Source of the DNA: Candidatus Aenigmarchaeota archaeon LH_S7
Lineage (GTDB): Archaea; Aenigmatarchaeota; Aenigmatarchaeia; QMZS01
Assembly (NCBI GenBank): GCA_023659895.1
Contig: JAGXOL010000001.1
Coordinates: forward strand, 15,757-79,756
Direction: 5' to 3'
Length of the DNA: 64,000 nucleotides
This document shows positions 2,404 to 51,227 of the stretch, piece by piece (positions within the stretch are counted from its first letter, which is position 1; every line of letters starts with the position of its first letter). The notes under the pieces are model-generated. The model was not told where the DNA came from and did not search any database. It saw nothing but the letters and a program-made list of their open reading frames with translations. The position numbers and the translations under genes are program-made.

Positions 2404-3942
2404 TTGACAATAGAAAATTTTATTCTAACTTATTTTATGTCACAGGAATTGAATGATTTAGCTAAAAAATTACTTGCAAATGGAAAGATAGCCAGTCCTG
2501 AGGCTTTGGAAATCATAAGGAATAGGAATCTTTTTGATGAAGTTTTGAAGTTGGAGGAAACCATAATAAAGAAGAGTACTTTGGAATCTTTAGAAAAAGA
2601 AAAATTTAAAAATGAACAGAAAATAGAGAAAGAATCTGAAAAAGAATTAAAACAAGAAACAAAACTGGAAGAGAAACCAGAAGAACCAAAAAAAGAAGAA
2701 GTAGAAATAAGGAGAGACAGGAAAAAGAAGGTTGCTGAGGAACATGATGTAGATTTCAATATATACAATTCAGAGGTAAAGCATGTAGAACGGAAAACCT
2801 CTGATTTCATTAATTATTTTAACTCAAGGTACGAGTTGATTCAAGGAATGTTGATGAAGAGAGTAAATCCAATTTCTATTTCCAATGTTAAGAAAACTCG
2901 GAATGATGAAGTTTCTATAATAGGGATGGTTTATGATATCAAGACAACAGCTTCAAACAACAAGATCATTGAATTGGAAGATCCAACAGGAAAACTCTCT
3001 GCAATGATAACTCAGAATTCTGAGGGAAGTCTTTTTGAGGAATCAGAAAATATTTTGAAAGATGAGGTTTTAGGTGTTAGAGGTGTTTTTAAGAACAATT
3101 ATCTATTTATAAGGGAGCTTATAAGACCTGAGATACCTATTACCAAAGAAATAAAGAAATTGGATGTGCCTTTGTCCTGTGTTTTCATCTCTGACTTGCA
3201 TGTGGGTAGTGTTGATTTCCTTGAAGACACCTTCAAGAAATTTTTGAAATGGTTGCATTCAAAGGAAGCAGAGAACGTGAAATATATTTTGATTGCAGGG
3301 GATTTGGTTGATGGTATAGGAATTTATGCTTCCCAGGAGGAAGACCTATCAATAAAAAGTGGGAAGAAACAATATGAACACACTGCTGAATTATTGAAAC
3401 AAATACCTGAACATATTAAGATCATTGTTCAGCCAGGTAACCACGACATTGTTGGTAATCATGAACCTCAGAACACTTTGAAAGATACTGCATTATCACA
3501 ACTACCTAATATTGTTTTTGGTACTAATCCTTGTTGGGTAACTTTGGATAAGATAAAGATATTGATGTACCATGGTTATTCCTACGACAATTTGATAAGG
3601 GAATTACCTTCAATCAGGCAGAAAGGTTATAGGGAACCCACTTTACCTATGATAGAAGCTCTTAAAAGAAGGCATTTAGCACCTACTTATGGCTCCTCCC
3701 TAGCAATACCTGAACAAAAGGATTATTTGGTTGTAGAGGATATACCAGACATTCTCCATTCTGGGCACTTGCATACTGTAGGAATGGATAATTACAAGAA
3801 TGTTTTAACCATTAACTCTGGAACATTCCAGGGGAGAACCAAATTCCAGGAAATGTTAGGTCATGTGCCTCACCCAGGAATTTTCGTGAAGGTTGATATG
3901 GACACCAGAAAGAGTAGAATGGTAAATTTGAACAATTATTAG
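2404..3942 (+). CDS. DNA polymerase II (PolD) small subunit DP1, calcineurin-like phosphoesterase
   Basis: 512 aa; Lys/Glu-rich linker then MPP motifs (ISDLHVGS, IAGDLVDG, GNHD, GHLH). Confidence 0.8.
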   Translation: MTIENFILTYFMSQELNDLAKKLLANGKIASPEALEIIRNRNLFDEVLKLEETIIKKSTLESLEKEKFKNEQKIEKESEKELKQETKLEEKPEEPKKEEVEIRRDRKKKVAEEHDVDFNIYNSEVKHVERKTSDFINYFNSRYELIQGMLMKRVNPISISNVKKTRNDEVSIIGMVYDIKTTASNNKIIELEDPTGKLSAMITQNSEGSLFEESENILKDEVLGVRGVFKNNYLFIRELIRPEIPITKEIKKLDVPLSCVFISDLHVGSVDFLEDTFKKFLKWLHSKEAENVKYILIAGDLVDGIGIYASQEEDLSIKSGKKQYEHTAELLKQIPEHIKIIVQPGNHDIVGNHEPQNTLKDTALSQLPNIVFGTNPCWVTLDKIKILMYHGYSYDNLIRELPSIRQKGYREPTLPMIEALKRRHLAPTYGSSLAIPEQKDYLVVEDIPDILHSGHLHTVGMDNYKNVLTINSGTFQGRTKFQEMLGHVPHPGIFVKVDMDTRKSRMVNLNNY

Positions 3943-4521: not shown

Positions 4522-5820
4522 ATGGATTATGGAACAATTGGTTTTATCATCTTCATTGTTGCTTTAGTCATCCTTGTATATTGGAAGAAAAAAAATCTCC
4601 AAATTCAGGGAGTTTTCGTGATGTTGAAGACAAAAAAACTTAGAACCCTAATAAAGAGAGCTGTAAAAAAATATCCTTTCTTTTGGAAAACTTATTTTAC
4701 AACAGGTGTTATAGTTGGATTCCTTGCAATGGTATTTGGAATTTTTTTCCTTCTTAACAATGTAATCAATCTTTTACAGGGTTTTGGTGCTCCCACTCTT
4801 TCTTTGGTTTTTCCAGGGCCAACATCTTCTTTTTCAGCTCATCCAGGTGTTCTTTTAGTTCCTATATGGTACTGGTTGATAGCAATTGTAGTTTTGATTT
4901 TCCCTCACGAGCTTTCTCATGGTTTAGCGCTAGCTTTAAACAAGTTGAAAATTAAGTCTTTAGGTGTTTTCTTGCTCTTGTTCATACCTGGAGCTTTTGT
5001 TGAGCCAGATGAAAAACAATTAAAGAAAGTAAACAAGTTCAAAAAATTGCAAGTGTATGCAGCAGGTTCTTTTTCAAATATTGTTACGGGGATTATTCTT
5101 GTTTTAATTTTCCATCTTTTCCTGTTCACAGCTTTCTCTTATGAAGGTGTAGATTATGGATATGCAAGAGATATGGTTAATAGGTCAGAAATAATAGAGA
5201 CCAATAATTTGTCTGAGGGTTTGCTTGAAATAAAAACTTCCCAAGACACTTATTTAGCAACAAAATCTATTTTGGATAGACAAGTTAATAATACAAATCT
5301 TTTGTTGTTTGATGACTGGCCAGCTGCGAGAAATAATTTATCAGGAAGTATCAAAAAGATAGATAATATTGAAATAACTTCTTTTGATAAAATGACCAAG
5401 GTTTTGTCTAATTATAAACCAGGTGATAATATTAAAATAGAGACTTCAAAAGGAATTAATAACATTACTTTAGCAAATCGTAAGGGTAAAGCATTTCTAG
5501 GAATAACTTACCCTCAAGGATATACTTATATTCTTAACATGATTCCTAGCGAAACAGTGGTTGATTTTGTATTCCCACAGAGCTACAAGAATTATGAATT
5601 GCAAGCTCTCCCAGAAAGCGTGGGAAATTTCCTTTACATGCTAATATTTTTTATCTACAATGTTTGTTTTGGTGTCGCAATCATAAATATCTTACCAATA
5701 AAACCATTGGATGGAGGTTTGATAACGGAAACTTTAACTAATAAGAGATTTGCTAACGCAATTTCATTAATTTTCTTTGCAATCTTGGTCTTTATCATAG
5801 CAGGACCTTACTTATTGTGA
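4522..5820 (+). CDS. site-2 protease family (M50) intramembrane zinc metalloprotease with PDZ-like insert
   Basis: Polytopic; HELSHG (HExxH) in TM helix and C-terminal NILPIKPLDGG (LDG motif). Confidence 0.7.
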   Translation: MDYGTIGFIIFIVALVILVYWKKKNLQIQGVFVMLKTKKLRTLIKRAVKKYPFFWKTYFTTGVIVGFLAMVFGIFFLLNNVINLLQGFGAPTLSLVFPGPTSSFSAHPGVLLVPIWYWLIAIVVLIFPHELSHGLALALNKLKIKSLGVFLLLFIPGAFVEPDEKQLKKVNKFKKLQVYAAGSFSNIVTGIILVLIFHLFLFTAFSYEGVDYGYARDMVNRSEIIETNNLSEGLLEIKTSQDTYLATKSILDRQVNNTNLLLFDDWPAARNNLSGSIKKIDNIEITSFDKMTKVLSNYKPGDNIKIETSKGINNITLANRKGKAFLGITYPQGYTYILNMIPSETVVDFVFPQSYKNYELQALPESVGNFLYMLIFFIYNVCFGVAIINILPIKPLDGGLITETLTNKRFANAISLIFFAILVFIIAGPYLL

Positions 5821-8042: not shown

Positions 8043-8154
8043 GCTGGGGTGGCAGAGTCAGGTTAATGCGGTGGACTCGAGATCCACTGGACCTAGTCCG
8101 CGCAGGTAGGTTTTTCTTGAAGAAAATCCCTGTAATCAAATCCTGCCCCCAGCG
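8043..8154 (+). tRNA. tRNA-Ser(CGA), class II, with a 28-nt intron in the T-loop (8108-8135, after T54)
   Basis: Acceptor GCTGGGG/CCCCAGC, 3-bp D-stem, anticodon arm GTGGA-CTCGAGA-TCCAC, variable hairpin GGAC-CTA-GTCC, T-stem GCAGG/CCTGC with loop split T|...|TCAAAT; exons total 84 nt. Confidence 0.7.
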
Positions 8155-34508: not shown

Positions 34509-35689
34509 AAAGGCAAGAAAACTCCCAAATCGTGTAGAGGATTTGCCCTTAAATAATTTAAAAACATAATTAAATATGGTCTGTGTTAGAAAAACGATTA
34601 AATGCAAGATAATAAAGCCAACAGAGTTAAAGTTGAATCAATTAAACAAAGAAAATAACAATATTCAAGAACTGCTACAATTAGAAAAATTTGGTTTAGA
34701 TTTTCTACCTATTTACAATTCTCTTAAAAAGAAGGTTTATTCTGCAAATATACAACAAGCCTTAAGATTTTATAAAAAGATTAAATTAGATAAAGAATAT
34801 CCAATATCCTTTAGAAAAGATTTGTTAGAGATTAGGAAAACAGATAACAAACTTTCAGAGTATTGGGTTAAAATACCTACTAAACAAAGAAAAGGTGGAC
34901 TAAAGTTAGCAATTAAATCACAACCTTTTCTCTTTGAAGATTATGAGATTTGTGAATCTAAATTATTTAAAAAGAAAAATAATTGGTTTTTAAACCTAAC
35001 AGTTCAAAAAGAAGTTGAACTGAATAATACTTATTCCTCTGTTCTCGGTCTTGATTTGGGACAGAAGTATATGGGAGTATCGGTGATGCAACCATCTGCT
35101 TTAATGACTCCTAAATTCTACGGCAAAGAAGTCAGAGGAATAAGAAGAAAATACGACTATATTAGAAAGCAACTTGGTGAAAAGAAACTGCTTAAAGAAA
35201 TAAAAAGGTTTGGACAGAAGGAGCAAAGAAAAGTAACTGATTGTCTCCATAAAATCTCTAATGAAATAGTAGATTTGGCTCTAACCAGTAATTCTACTAT
35301 TGTTGTTGGAGACCTGAAAGGGATTAGAAAATCAGCGAAAGGCAGAAACTTCAATAGAATAATCTCAAATATGCCTTATTATCAATTAACACAAATGCTC
35401 GAATACAAAGCAAATTGGAGTGGGATAAGAGTGGTTAAAGTGAATGAAAGGGGAACAAGTCATACTTGTTGTAAATGTAGTTCTAAAGGTTCAAGACCAA
35501 AACAAGGAGTTTTCAATTGTTCTGTTTGTGGACTAAAAGACTACAATGCTGACATAAATGGTGCTACTAATATAGGTAATAAAGTGTCTTCTGGGTATAT
35601 CTTGGAAGATGGGGCAACATTGACTTTGCCCGAAACTGGTGCAATATGACATCAGAATCTCTTGACTTTAGTGATGGGAGAGGGTCAAA
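34509..35689 (+). mobile_element. IS200/IS605-family TnpB-only element, copy 2
   Basis: Homologous ends and ORF to copy 1; conserved sequence continues about 40 nt past tnpB stop (candidate omega/reRNA and right end). Confidence 0.7.
34576..35649 (+). CDS. tnpB: TnpB (OrfB) family protein, paralog of 22466-23590
   Basis: 357 aa, about 90% aa identity to copy 1; zinc finger CCKCS...CSVCG. Confidence 0.8.
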   Translation: MVCVRKTIKCKIIKPTELKLNQLNKENNNIQELLQLEKFGLDFLPIYNSLKKKVYSANIQQALRFYKKIKLDKEYPISFRKDLLEIRKTDNKLSEYWVKIPTKQRKGGLKLAIKSQPFLFEDYEICESKLFKKKNNWFLNLTVQKEVELNNTYSSVLGLDLGQKYMGVSVMQPSALMTPKFYGKEVRGIRRKYDYIRKQLGEKKLLKEIKRFGQKEQRKVTDCLHKISNEIVDLALTSNSTIVVGDLKGIRKSAKGRNFNRIISNMPYYQLTQMLEYKANWSGIRVVKVNERGTSHTCCKCSSKGSRPKQGVFNCSVCGLKDYNADINGATNIGNKVSSGYILEDGATLTLPETGAI

Positions 35690-46781: not shown

Positions 46782-48899
46782 TCAAAATTCCCCCAACTTT
46801 TTCTGCTTTTTATTTTCTAAAATGTTTTTTGAAGTTGCCCATTTTAACCTCACAATTTCATTGTAACTTTCTTTATCTAAATTCCTCAAAAATTCTGTGG
46901 TTCTTTCATCACTAGGATAACCTGAATTATGCAATAAAATACCAGAAAAGCCACCAACAAAATTCTCTATATTTTTTCCGTTTGGCTTTACTTCTAAATC
47001 ATAAACAAATTCTTTTCTTCTTAAATTTTTTATTGATTTCAGAGTATACCAACAAATATCAGAATTTAATAATTTATTTATTTTTTTGGTATCTTTACCA
47101 TCAAATATTTTTATTATCTTTCTTATAGTGGATTTTCTTATAGAACCAGATTTTTGATTCTCGATTCTACTTGTTATTCCATGATCTATACAAGTTAACT
47201 CAGCCAATTTTCTTTGGGAGATTTTATATTTTAATCTCAACTTTTTTATTGTTTTTCCTATTATCGAAGGAATATTATCTGGAGAAAGAGAATTCGTATT
47301 TTGAGAAAGCTCTCTTATTACATGCCTACCTCTACTTTGCTTAAAAGAAGAAGTAGGTTTATTTAAAAATAAATATAACCAAGATAAATCATAAAATATA
47401 TATTTGCTCCTGGTTTCTACTTCCCAATTGTTTTCATCCATATATCCATCACCATCCAGGTATCCTCTAATGAAATTTTTAATTTGTTCTTTAGAGCAGG
47501 AAAAAATAAAGTTTGGTATTCTTTTTTTGTATGCTGAATTTCCTACCCATTTATTAAAAAGTTTACATAGTATCCCTGAATTAATTTCAATACCATCTTT
47601 ATCAAATCTATAAGATGTGTTCAAATTCTTGCATGTATATTCAATTTCATTTAATACTTTATGGTCAGTGTTAGAAATACATACATTATAACCCTTTGTA
47701 TATCCCTCAGCAAGATACAACCCTAAGAGCCAAGTAAATTCTTTGTTTAGTCCTAAGATCGCTTTTATACTTGACTTTCTACCCCTACTATAAAGTATTG
47801 CATCATTTATAAATCTTTCCTTAAGGTAATCTCTCTTGAGACTAGTCACTATGTGAAGAGGTATATACGATTTCCTCTCCCATTCGTAGGATCTTACTCT
47901 ACTGTAACCTTGGGAAATACTTAGTTGCTGAATTTTTTTAAATCCCTCTCCCCTAAAAATTTTAGAGATGATCTTTCCGCTTAAATAAACAGGAGATTTC
48001 TTAGATGATGGAACAATTTTGGCAAGGTTTAAATTTTTAATACCTTTCCTTATATCTATATATTTGGCTGCTGCAATATAATCTCCAACCTTAAGATCCG
48101 AAACTTTAATGGGCATCAAATTTAAATTAGAGTTTAATTTAAAAATAGGATGGTTAAGAGTTAATCTAACTTTTTTCCCATAATTTAATTTAATTTCATA
48201 AATTGGTTGCGATGTATGTTTAATAAAGTTTGTAATTTTATATTTTTTTATTTTAAGTGAGTTTGGATCAATACTGTATGTATATAAATTCCCTTTTTCT
48301 TTATTTTCCACTACTTTTCCAATCTGCTCTAATTTTCTATCCCCTTTTCTATTTTCAATTAATATTCTCTCTTGGTATGGTAAAGATCCAAAAAATCCAT
48401 GTTTATTATGTAGCTTCTCAATCTCCCTGTCTCTTGTGACCTTTGCCAGAATGGAAGCTCCTCCAACAACAACGTACTTGTTATCTGCCTCATTCTCAGC
48501 AACAATATTTCCATCCTTGTTTTTCAATTTTTCCAAGACTTTATTCTTGAATTTCTCAGTATTGGCTTCAATAGAATCAAGATAAATTTTAGGTTTTCTC
48601 ATCCAAAAGGAATTGATTATTTGAGCGATCTTAGTAATCTCAATTTCGTTAAGATTTCTTCTTTCCATTTCTCTATTGAGTTGCTTTGATGAAATTTTTA
48701 ATACAATGTAATCATCAGCAATTTTTTTTATCTTATCTATCATTTCCTTTCTTTTCTCTGGTAAGACTTTCTTTGAGTCTTTAACACCAAGTTCTTTCAA
48801 TTTTTTTTCTTTTGATTTTTTAATCAATAAACCTGCAATAACTAGAGGACCTACAACTGCACCGCGACCAGCTTCATCAATTCCCAAAATGTAAGACAT
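46782..48899 (-). CDS. rnhB: ribonuclease HII interrupted by an about 487-aa LAGLIDADG intein
   Basis: N-extein GIDEAGRGAVVGPLVIAG...GGASILAK...HGFFG and C-extein SGYPSDERTTEF flank an insert ending ...ILLHN|S with LLGLYLAEGY and IRGYLDGDGY motifs. Confidence 0.8.
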   Translation of the reverse strand: MSYILGIDEAGRGAVVGPLVIAGLLIKKSKEKKLKELGVKDSKKVLPEKRKEMIDKIKKIADDYIVLKISSKQLNREMERRNLNEIEITKIAQIINSFWMRKPKIYLDSIEANTEKFKNKVLEKLKNKDGNIVAENEADNKYVVVGGASILAKVTRDREIEKLHNKHGFFGSLPYQERILIENRKGDRKLEQIGKVVENKEKGNLYTYSIDPNSLKIKKYKITNFIKHTSQPIYEIKLNYGKKVRLTLNHPIFKLNSNLNLMPIKVSDLKVGDYIAAAKYIDIRKGIKNLNLAKIVPSSKKSPVYLSGKIISKIFRGEGFKKIQQLSISQGYSRVRSYEWERKSYIPLHIVTSLKRDYLKERFINDAILYSRGRKSSIKAILGLNKEFTWLLGLYLAEGYTKGYNVCISNTDHKVLNEIEYTCKNLNTSYRFDKDGIEINSGILCKLFNKWVGNSAYKKRIPNFIFSCSKEQIKNFIRGYLDGDGYMDENNWEVETRSKYIFYDLSWLYLFLNKPTSSFKQSRGRHVIRELSQNTNSLSPDNIPSIIGKTIKKLRLKYKISQRKLAELTCIDHGITSRIENQKSGSIRKSTIRKIIKIFDGKDTKKINKLLNSDICWYTLKSIKNLRRKEFVYDLEVKPNGKNIENFVGGFSGILLHNSGYPSDERTTEFLRNLDKESYNEIVRLKWATSKNILENKKQKKLGEF
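46926..48386 (-). other. intein (Hint domain + LAGLIDADG homing endonuclease + HTH) within rnhB
   Basis: Begins Ser (SLPYQERIL), block B TLNHPIF, ends HN followed by +1 Ser; two LAGLIDADG blocks. Confidence 0.7.
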
Positions 48900-49118
48900 A
48901 AAATAATAAAGAAATTAAGCAAAAAGATTTTACAATACTTAAAGTATTTTTGAATATTATTTTAAGACCTTTAAGATACCTACTAGATTGTGGTCTTGCA
49001 AAAATTATAAATCTAGTGGTTATATTTATAGGTTGATTATATCTACAAATTTAAATTATTACTCCATAATTCAATAAAGGTCTATACATATTATTAATAT
49101 TTTAATCGGTTTTTTTAT

Positions 49119-49348
49119 GGCGGGAGCTGGTCCATAGCGAACTTGCTTTTTAAGTATTAGTAAGTCTGTAAGGATGGAGCAGTTAGGAGTGCTCGTCGAA
49201 CCCTTTTCTCCCTATCGCTCTAAAAGCGTTCACGGAAAAAAAGAGAAATAGGTGCGGAAGGCTCATAAGGACCTTTTTAGAAAGAGGTTCTATCCAAAAT
49301 GCATTTGGGAGACCCGAAGGTCGGTGGTTCAAATCCACCTCCCGCTAT
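49119..49348 (+). tRNA. tRNA gene with about 150 nt of intervening sequence; identity unresolved (tentative anticodon arm GAACC-CTTTT...GGTTC would be Lys-UUU)
   Basis: 3' end GGTGG-TTCAAAT-CCACC-TCCCGCT-A pairs with GGCGGGA at 49119; internal D-arm-like GAGC-AGTTAGGAGT-GCTC at 49177-49194; several extra hairpins. Confidence 0.45.
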
Positions 49349-49377
49349 TATTACTAAAATTTTAATCAATCTGATTT

Positions 49378-51092: not shown

Positions 51093-51127
51093 ATAAGTTT
51101 CTAAAGTAAGAAATTATGCGTTGGTGG

Positions 51128-51227
51128 TCTAGATCTTAACAATTTATTGTTTAGAGGACAATGGCATGATACAGCCCTGCCACGGCTGTGACCCGGGTTC
51201 GAATCCCGGCCAACGCAGAACAATTTT
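51128..51227 (+). tRNA. tRNA-Gly(GCC) with about 28 nt of insertion(s) between D-stem 5' strand and anticodon stem (51141-51181 region)
   Basis: GCGTTGG-TG-GTCT...CAGCC-CTGCCAC-GGCTG-TGAC-CCGGG-TTCGAAT-CCCGG-CCAACGC-A; D region is 41 nt instead of about 13. Confidence 0.65.

Follow-up and report, generated by a model that had tools for sequence, protein, structure and literature searches.

Positions 49119-49348 of the window (the whole 64,000-nt stretch of DNA that was analysed) end in an intact tRNA T-arm and acceptor strand, with a series of hairpins upstream. Is this a functional tRNA gene, which tRNA would it make, and where is it interrupted? A preliminary description, made from the sequence alone, had taken the region as one 230-nt gene starting at 49119. 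The gene located here is shorter, spanning 49136-49347 on the forward strand (212 nt) and preceded by a leader of about 17 nt. It is read as the gene for initiator tRNA-Met(CAU), interrupted by BHB introns at positions 4/5, 29/30 and 37/38, and the probability of this reading was put at about 0.88 from the sequence comparisons given below.

Genomic setting

The window is AT-rich (G+C about 31%) and archaeal, with ORFs encoding ribosomal protein S3Ae, PCNA, the small subunit of DNA polymerase D, diphthamide synthase and NurA. Its S3Ae is identical to the S3Ae on JAGXOM010000001.1 (assembly GCA_023659905.1), which carries locus L001 of a sister genome. The tRNA lies in an intergenic interval, 48900-49377, which no ORF of at least 60 aa overlaps on either strand. 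Assemblies of the Logan runs SRR14170872 and SRR14170864 contain this locus too. The initiator tRNA gene is adjoined by rnhB, encoding RNase HII (46782-48899, reverse strand), which is split by an intein with LAGLIDADG and HTH domains; the two genes are neighbours in many DPANN loci. A TnpB-like ORF of 357 aa with a Cas12f1-like TNB domain was seen at 34576-35649 (forward strand), just 3′ of the S19 and L22 genes.

The tRNA region folds more strongly than shuffled sequence (z = -4.0). ARAGORN, run on the unspliced DNA, reported no tRNA and no tmRNA at 49119-49348, and Rfam gave no match in the tRNA region at the gathering score; at a relaxed threshold (E <= 10) the T-arm alone was matched, with 13.9 bits.

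Two further tRNA genes of the window, both on the forward strand, are interrupted as well. A tRNA-Gly(GCC) gene at 51118-51217 has perfect acceptor strands, GCGTTGG and CCAACGC, 100 nt apart. Excision of a 29-nt insert (51133-51161, at 15/16, H = GUCU:GGAC) produced a clean 71-nt ARAGORN cloverleaf, and the raw ARAGORN call at 51145-51216, which has a poor acceptor stem, is probably wrong. A tRNA-Ser(CGA) gene at 8043-8154, matched by Rfam over 112 nt, has an insert of about 28 nt in the T-loop, roughly at 54/55.

Identity of the tRNA

The 3′ 25-mer of the gene (GGTGGTTCAAATCCACCTCCCGCTA, 49323-49347) was searched in one genome per species of Bacteria and Archaea. It forms the T-arm and acceptor strand of initiator tRNA-Met in at least 119 archaeal loci, and in nearly all of the matches listed it closes a contiguous 75-nt gene (AGCGGGAUGG...GGGCUCAUAACCC...). 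Because the 25-mer ends initiator genes elsewhere, the match is not due to chance and the 3′ end here is that of an initiator tRNA. The T-arm and 3′ acceptor strand pointed out beforehand (GGTGG-TTCAAAT-CCACC-TCCCGCT-A) are real, this being the shared 25-mer itself.

The BHB search that the preliminary description had recommended was run over all pairs of positions, requiring a helix H of 4 bp with a 3-nt bulge at either end, one on each strand, and placing the cut after the second bulge base. This unbiased scan gave a full 4-bp H at precisely the three junctions needed for an initiator tRNA. A spliced-alignment dynamic programme, blind to BHB motifs, returned the same three introns (32, 61 and 44 nt) and the same 212-nt gene. 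At all three introns the bulges are so placed that excision yields the exact mature sequence.

The joined exons measure 75 nt (AGCGGGAUGGAGCAGUUAGGAGUGCUCGUCGGGCUCAUAACCCGAAGGUCGGUGGUUCAAAUCCACCUCCCGCUA). ARAGORN folded the spliced 75-mer into a clean cloverleaf and called it tRNA-Met(cat), with CAU in a 7-nt loop, so that the earlier suggestion of a multi-intron tRNA was borne out, with three BHB introns and a cloverleaf after their excision. Archaeal initiator tRNA-Met has an A1:U72 terminal pair, three G:C pairs in the anticodon stem and the anticodon CAU. The A1:U72 pair is present with exon 1 taken as AGCG, and A1 was found in 94/94 intron-free homologues among the matches listed. The three G:C pairs 29-31:39-41 (GGG/CCC) are present after splicing, as they are in 87 of the 94 intron-free homologues listed, and G29-G31 are united only once intron 2 has been excised. 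The spliced product is identical at 72 of 75 positions to the intron-free initiator gene of the Aenigmatarchaeota genome L060. The discriminator is A73; CCA is not encoded.

Exons, introns and BHB motifs

All features described here are on the forward strand. The 5′ leader occupies 49119-49135, and its last two bases, AU (49134-49135), form half of H in the first BHB. Exon 1 (AGCG, 49136-49139) supplies tRNA positions 1-4 in 4 nt; it was defined by the BHB scan, by the spliced alignment and by junctions shared with other genes, and its junction was the best motif of the BHB scan (a=21, b=53). Intron 1 (49140-49171, 32 nt, at 4/5) interrupts the acceptor stem. Its H pairs AUAG (49134-49137) with CUGU (49166-49169), the bulges are CG|A and AA|G, and the inner helix h′ has 7 bp (49141-49147 with 49159-49165). 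The outer helix h has 1 bp, giving the relaxed HBh′ form.

Exon 2 (GGATGGAGCAGTTAGGAGTGCTCGTCG, 49172-49198, 27 nt) carries tRNA positions 5-29, that is, the remainder of the acceptor 5′ strand, U8, G9, the entire D-arm, position 26 and positions 27-29. The D-arm hairpin recognised at the outset, GAGC-AGTTAGGAGT-GCTC, was recovered at 49177-49194. Intron 2 (49199-49259, 61 nt, at 29/30) interrupts the anticodon stem in a strict hBHBh′ motif, with H formed by UCGU (49193-49196) and GCGG (49254-49257), an h of 2 bp and an h′ of 3 bp.

Exon 3 (GGCTCATA, 49260-49267) consists of 8 nt, tRNA positions 30-37 including the anticodon CAU. Intron 3 (49268-49311, 44 nt) lies at the canonical site 37/38. 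Its H joins CUCA (49262-49265) to UGGG (49306-49309); h has 2 bp (G30:C40 and G31:C39) and h′ two G.U pairs. Exon 4 (ACCCGAAGGTCGGTGGTTCAAATCCACCTCCCGCTA, 49312-49347, 36 nt) completes the tRNA with positions 38-73, running from the 3′ half of the anticodon stem through the variable loop and T-arm to the 3′ strand of the acceptor and A73.

The nearest-neighbour minimum of the transcript was -79.7 kcal/mol, against -70.3, -75.2 and -56.8 kcal/mol with BHB1, BHB2 and BHB3 enforced, respectively, so that the model by itself favours other pairings over the BHB conformers. These conformer energies are uninformative, because binding by EndA lies outside the nearest-neighbour model. The long introns were inspected for a box C/D guide RNA and no RUGAUGA or CUGA motif was seen. 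A search of the window for paralogous intron copies, which would indicate intron transposition, gave short chance matches only.

Several elements proposed before the introns were placed fall apart on this map. The candidate anticodon stem GAACC...GGTTC would pair the opening bases of intron 2 with a hairpin within intron 3, and in place of an anticodon loop starting CTTTT the spliced product has CAU. Two additional hairpins had been listed. One, CCAAAATGCATTTGG, is inside intron 3, where it provides the 3′ strand of the central helix of that intron; the other, GACCCGAAGGTC, takes in the final base of intron 3 and then tRNA positions 38-48, covering A38, the anticodon stem's 3′ strand and the variable loop.

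This second hairpin lies directly 5′ of the T-stem and resembles a variable arm, and a CUU...AAGA pair of segments can be joined into a UAA anticodon loop, which together would point to a class II tRNA-Leu(UAA). That reading, and with it a tRNA containing a group I or group II intron or a tmRNA-like molecule, can in practice be set aside, as the initiator solution accounts for every base. With GACCCGAAGGTC as the variable arm of a class II tRNA-Leu(UAA), no BHB motif was found at the junctions needed. Self-splicing group I and group II introns are longer than about 200 nt; the inserts here, at 32, 61 and 44 nt, are far too short for them, and no such intron was matched by Rfam even at E <= 10. 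Neither an ARAGORN tmRNA nor an Rfam match to a tmRNA family was obtained.

The 5′ end of the gene and the 4/5 intron

The gene as initiator tRNA can also be given a different 5′ end. GGCGGGA at 49119-49125 had been proposed as the acceptor 5′ strand and is indeed complementary to TCCCGCT, and GGCGGGAG as a whole is strongly complementary to the 3′ strand. Exon 1 would then be GGCG (49119-49122), or GGCGGGA with the intron at 7/8; with GGCG, intron 1 would be 49 nt long (49123-49171) and the terminal pair G1.U72. The GGCG and AGCG models have the 3′ splice site in common, since AUGG (49117-49120) forms a 4-bp H with CUGU (49166-49169), and ARAGORN accepted both 75-mers. The two differ in the inner helix, which has 7 bp with exon 1 at 49136 and 1 bp with exon 1 at 49119, so that the latter has no defined 5′ bulge. 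A start at GGCG also places G1 where the intron-free homologues listed all have A1, and the spliced-alignment programme favoured 49136.

The comparison with other genes points the same way. A homologous 4/5 intron was found in five other genes, those of the Woesearchaeota L075 (29 nt) and L100 (15 nt) and of the metagenome contigs L123 (19 nt), L124 (18 nt) and L125 (21 nt), the last three contributed by a pattern scan of metagenomes. All six genes keep CAU|AGCG|AAC...GUCURUAA|GGAU with an H of 4 bp, and their inner helices h′ have 2-9 bp and differ in sequence. L100, L123 and L124 have no usable upstream exon, yet they keep CAU|AGCG. An exon 1 at 49119 was on these grounds judged improbable, and AGCG at 49136-49139 is retained as the true 5′ exon, GGCGGGA being assigned to the leader. 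The first intron accordingly lies at 4/5 and not at 7/8, as had been entertained; no BHB motif supports the latter site. A cloverleaf with GGCGGGA as positions 1-7 and an intron at 7/8 also leaves three nucleotides between the D and anticodon stems. Excising a first intron of 49 nt in nested fashion or in two steps was considered as well, and leaves a 17-nt insert without a BHB motif.

Covariation at BHB1 was counted over the six conserved junctions. Paired cells made up 85.7%, compared with 32-50% in slid controls, a difference that was not significant (85/500 shuffles were equally paired), the six sequences being too few and too conserved. Support for BHB1 thus comes mostly from conservation, together with a few compensatory changes. 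The 4/5 acceptor-stem intron is the sole unusual point of this gene.

The orthologous locus, intron turnover and constraint

The initiator gene is divergent from the adjoining rnhB, and the same arrangement was found in L051 (Aenigmarchaeota LH_S6), L077 (Aenigmarchaeota LH_S4) and L060, whose RNase HII proteins are 60-77% identical to that of the window. In four other loci rnhB follows the tRNA on the same strand, starting about 20-50 nt downstream in L123, L124 and L097 and about 350 nt downstream in L100. The gene next to rnhB has no intron in L060, a D-loop intron and a 29/30 intron homologous to intron 2 in L051, and a D-loop intron and a 37/38 intron in L077. A single locus with zero, two (in differing combinations) or three introns documents that close relatives gain and lose tRNA introns rapidly. 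The genes of L051 (5338-5502) and L077 (7109-7251) have near-identical flanks and the D-loop intron in common, the 29/30 intron being confined to L051 and the 37/38 intron to L077; this contrast indicates recent gain or loss of an intron at an orthologous locus.

About 111 initiator genes were compared among the matches listed, a sample and not a census of intron-bearing genes: 93 lack introns altogether, 10 carry one, 5 carry two and 3 carry three. This last group consists of the window gene, its twin in L001 and the gene of Woesearchaeota L100.

Within this sample the window gene and its twin are the longest of the homologues, with three insertions each, and standard finders (ARAGORN and Rfam) miss the gene. 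Both features could be expected of a decaying pseudogene, its insertions left unprocessed and the functional initiator tRNA encoded elsewhere in the genome. Such decay is very unlikely here. Every insertion is bounded by a 4-bp helix with two 3-nt bulges, the exons are free of defects, and the gene occupies the conserved initiator locus adjacent to rnhB. The other two tRNA genes of the window are interrupted too, so excision of non-canonical introns must be routine in this organism.

The comparison with L001 also speaks against decay, the exons being identical while the introns differ. No difference was found in the 75 nt of exons or in the 17 nt of the leader, and five were found in the 137 nt of introns, an exon-intron contrast of p ~0.1. 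Intron 2 has one substitution, in a hairpin loop. Intron 3 has four differences, two of which improve pairing in its internal hairpin. The direction of the difference is that expected for a functional gene, with five events making this a weak test.

Pairing of the 5′ leader

The leader carries a pseudo-acceptor strand, GGCGGGAG (49119-49126), complementary to the 3′ acceptor strand. The full leader helix, AUGGCGGGAG:CUCCCGCUAU (49119-49128 with 49339-49348), has a dG of -18.1 kcal/mol, and 3/1000 shuffles were as good. Its stability equals or exceeds that of the true 7-bp acceptor stem, and it would stack on the T-arm as a genuine acceptor stem does.

Significant complementarity of the leader to the 3′ acceptor strand or the trailer was found in five of the six genes with a 4/5 intron, the window included (p <0.001 to 0.024), the six leaders being homologous and hence not fully independent observations. 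Among controls with an uninterrupted 5′ end, 3/90 initiator genes reached p <= 0.025, and 0/28 did so among those with AT-rich leaders. In L125, at about 680-860, an 18-bp helix joins the 5′ leader (GGUAGAGCGGAAG...) to the 3′ trailer (...UUCCGCUCUAC), with a dG of -26.9 kcal/mol and 0/1000 shuffles as good.

A TATA-like box, TTAATATT, begins 25 nt upstream of G49119. Over the six genes the leader element starts 25-34 nt downstream of the start of the TATA-like box, a distance that puts the element about where transcription should begin.

The element may serve as a surrogate acceptor strand, holding or protecting the 3′ end for as long as the true 5′ strand is interrupted, as its complementarity would allow, or it might conceivably be a relic of the event that created the intron. 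The wider proposal, that tRNA genes with a 4/5 intron have, at the very start of the primary transcript, a surrogate acceptor strand that co-evolves and pairs with the 3′ acceptor strand or trailer, is offered tentatively, and we hold it to be rather doubtful. If it were true, a pseudo acceptor/T-arm minihelix would shield the 3′ end, and perhaps let 3′ maturation proceed, as long as the BHB motif engages the real 5′ strand; the repaired 5′ strand would then have to displace the leader element after splicing and before the RNase P cut. The precursor would have a previously undescribed architecture, in which splicing is forced to precede 5′ trimming.

Proposed processing of the precursor

The analysis establishes the arrangement of exons and introns, the BHB geometry, the identity of the product and orthology with less disrupted genes; transcription, splicing, the order of the steps and any role of the leader we infer, drawing on what is established about archaeal tRNA splicing. 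Transcription would start near G49119, about 25 nt downstream of the TATA-like box, leaving a leader of about 17 nt in the precursor. EndA would cut within the two 3-nt bulges of each BHB, six bulges in total, and RtcB would ligate the exons. RNase P would remove the leader before A49136, and the 3′ trailer would be trimmed. CCA, not being encoded, would be added post-transcriptionally. The roles of EndA, RtcB and RNase P in archaeal tRNA splicing have been described (PMC4090602, PMC5829648). No EndA or RtcB domain was seen among the 40 window ORFs scanned.

The motifs set constraints on the order of these steps. H of BHB1 is made of leader bases -2 and -1 and tRNA bases 1 and 2; since it needs leader bases, excision of intron 1 would have to precede 5′ trimming by RNase P. 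G31 and C32 are shared by BHB2 and BHB3, so the two motifs cannot both be fully formed at once, and introns 2 and 3 would probably be presented in alternative conformations. The relaxed HBh′ form of intron 1 implies that an EndA of broad specificity is required. A 4/5 BHB that borrows two leader bases, combined with pairing of the leader to the 3′ strand, would be a concrete case of a forced order between splicing and end maturation.

The predicted spliced junctions are AGCG|GGAUGGAGC (AGCG|GGAUGG), GCUCGUCG|GGCUCAUA (GUCG|GGCUCAUA) and CUCAUA|ACCCGAAGG (CAUA|ACCCGA). Intron 1, if excised as a circle, would have a junction reading ...GUCUGUAA|AACUUGCU....

Relation to known disrupted tRNA genes

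A multi-intron archaeal tRNA gene is of a well-known kind, and a known oddity of tiny DPANN archaea. As many as three introns in one archaeal tRNA gene, the intron sites 29/30 and 3/4, and the disruption of tRNA genes in DPANN archaea have all been documented (PMC4090602, PMC4033280, PMC3218864, PMC5829648). The kind of element being well known, the gene is of specialist interest only. In the literature compared on disrupted archaeal tRNAs, no description was found of an initiator tRNA-Met with introns at 4/5, 29/30 and 37/38, nor of the 4/5 site or the leader pairing.

The nearest parallel is with the Thermoproteales (Pyrobaculum, Thermofilum and Caldivirga), whose multi-intron tRNAs include an "extreme" 3/4 acceptor-stem intron (Sugahara 2008, as given in PMC4090602; PMC3218864). 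The window gene is like these in having up to three BHB introns in a gene, a 29/30 intron together with the canonical 37/38 intron and one acceptor-stem intron, with removal expected by EndA and RtcB. It differs in its lineage, which is DPANN (Aenigmarchaeota-like) and not Crenarchaeota, and in the site of the acceptor-stem intron, 4/5 instead of 3/4. Whereas the introns of the Thermoproteales have undergone an expansion, the 4/5 intron is inherited or shared across Aenigmarchaeota-like archaea and Woesearchaeota, and no paralogous copies were seen in the window.

Multi-intron tRNAs with relaxed BHB motifs are known from ARMAN-2/Micrarchaeum, and disrupted tRNAs and incomplete predicted tRNA sets have been reported for DPANN (PMC3239211, PMC5829648). 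The window agrees with that picture in coming from an ultrasmall archaeon, in having non-canonical introns in 3/3 of its tRNA genes and in containing one relaxed HBh′ motif. Its initiator gene is also of the sort anticipated in PMC5829648, overlooked by standard finders; there the incompleteness of DPANN tRNA sets was noted and manual curation urged. With the essential initiator gene of a reduced DPANN genome missed by ARAGORN and Rfam, genomes of this sort would be scored as having no initiator tRNA.

In split tRNA halves and in archaeal pre-rRNA processing stems, the pairing itself forms the BHB motif that EndA cuts. The window leader resembles both in that a 5′ element is complementary to, and pairs with, a portion of the precursor at its 3′ side: the acceptor 3′ strand for the window gene, the trailer for the leader-trailer helix of L125. 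It differs in that the leader pairing is outside all three BHB motifs, and its role is proposed from the complementarity described above.

Disrupted genes for initiator tRNA-Met have been reported before, split in Nanoarchaeum equitans and permuted in Thermofilum pendens (PMC3218864). As in those two species, an essential initiator gene is disrupted here and depends on BHB processing; unlike theirs, it is a single colinear unit with three cis introns, neither split nor permuted.

A different arrangement was observed in the Micrarchaeota L065 and L076, on the reverse strand, where the last 32 nt or so of an intact initiator gene recur as a second copy 180-210 nt further downstream. The first copy ends at 5239 and the second at 5450 in L065, and at 3019 and 3200 in L076. 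The partial copies are preceded by G-rich, unrelated and strongly self-complementary sequence, and could reflect a split or permuted gene or else a duplication that an integrated element left behind.
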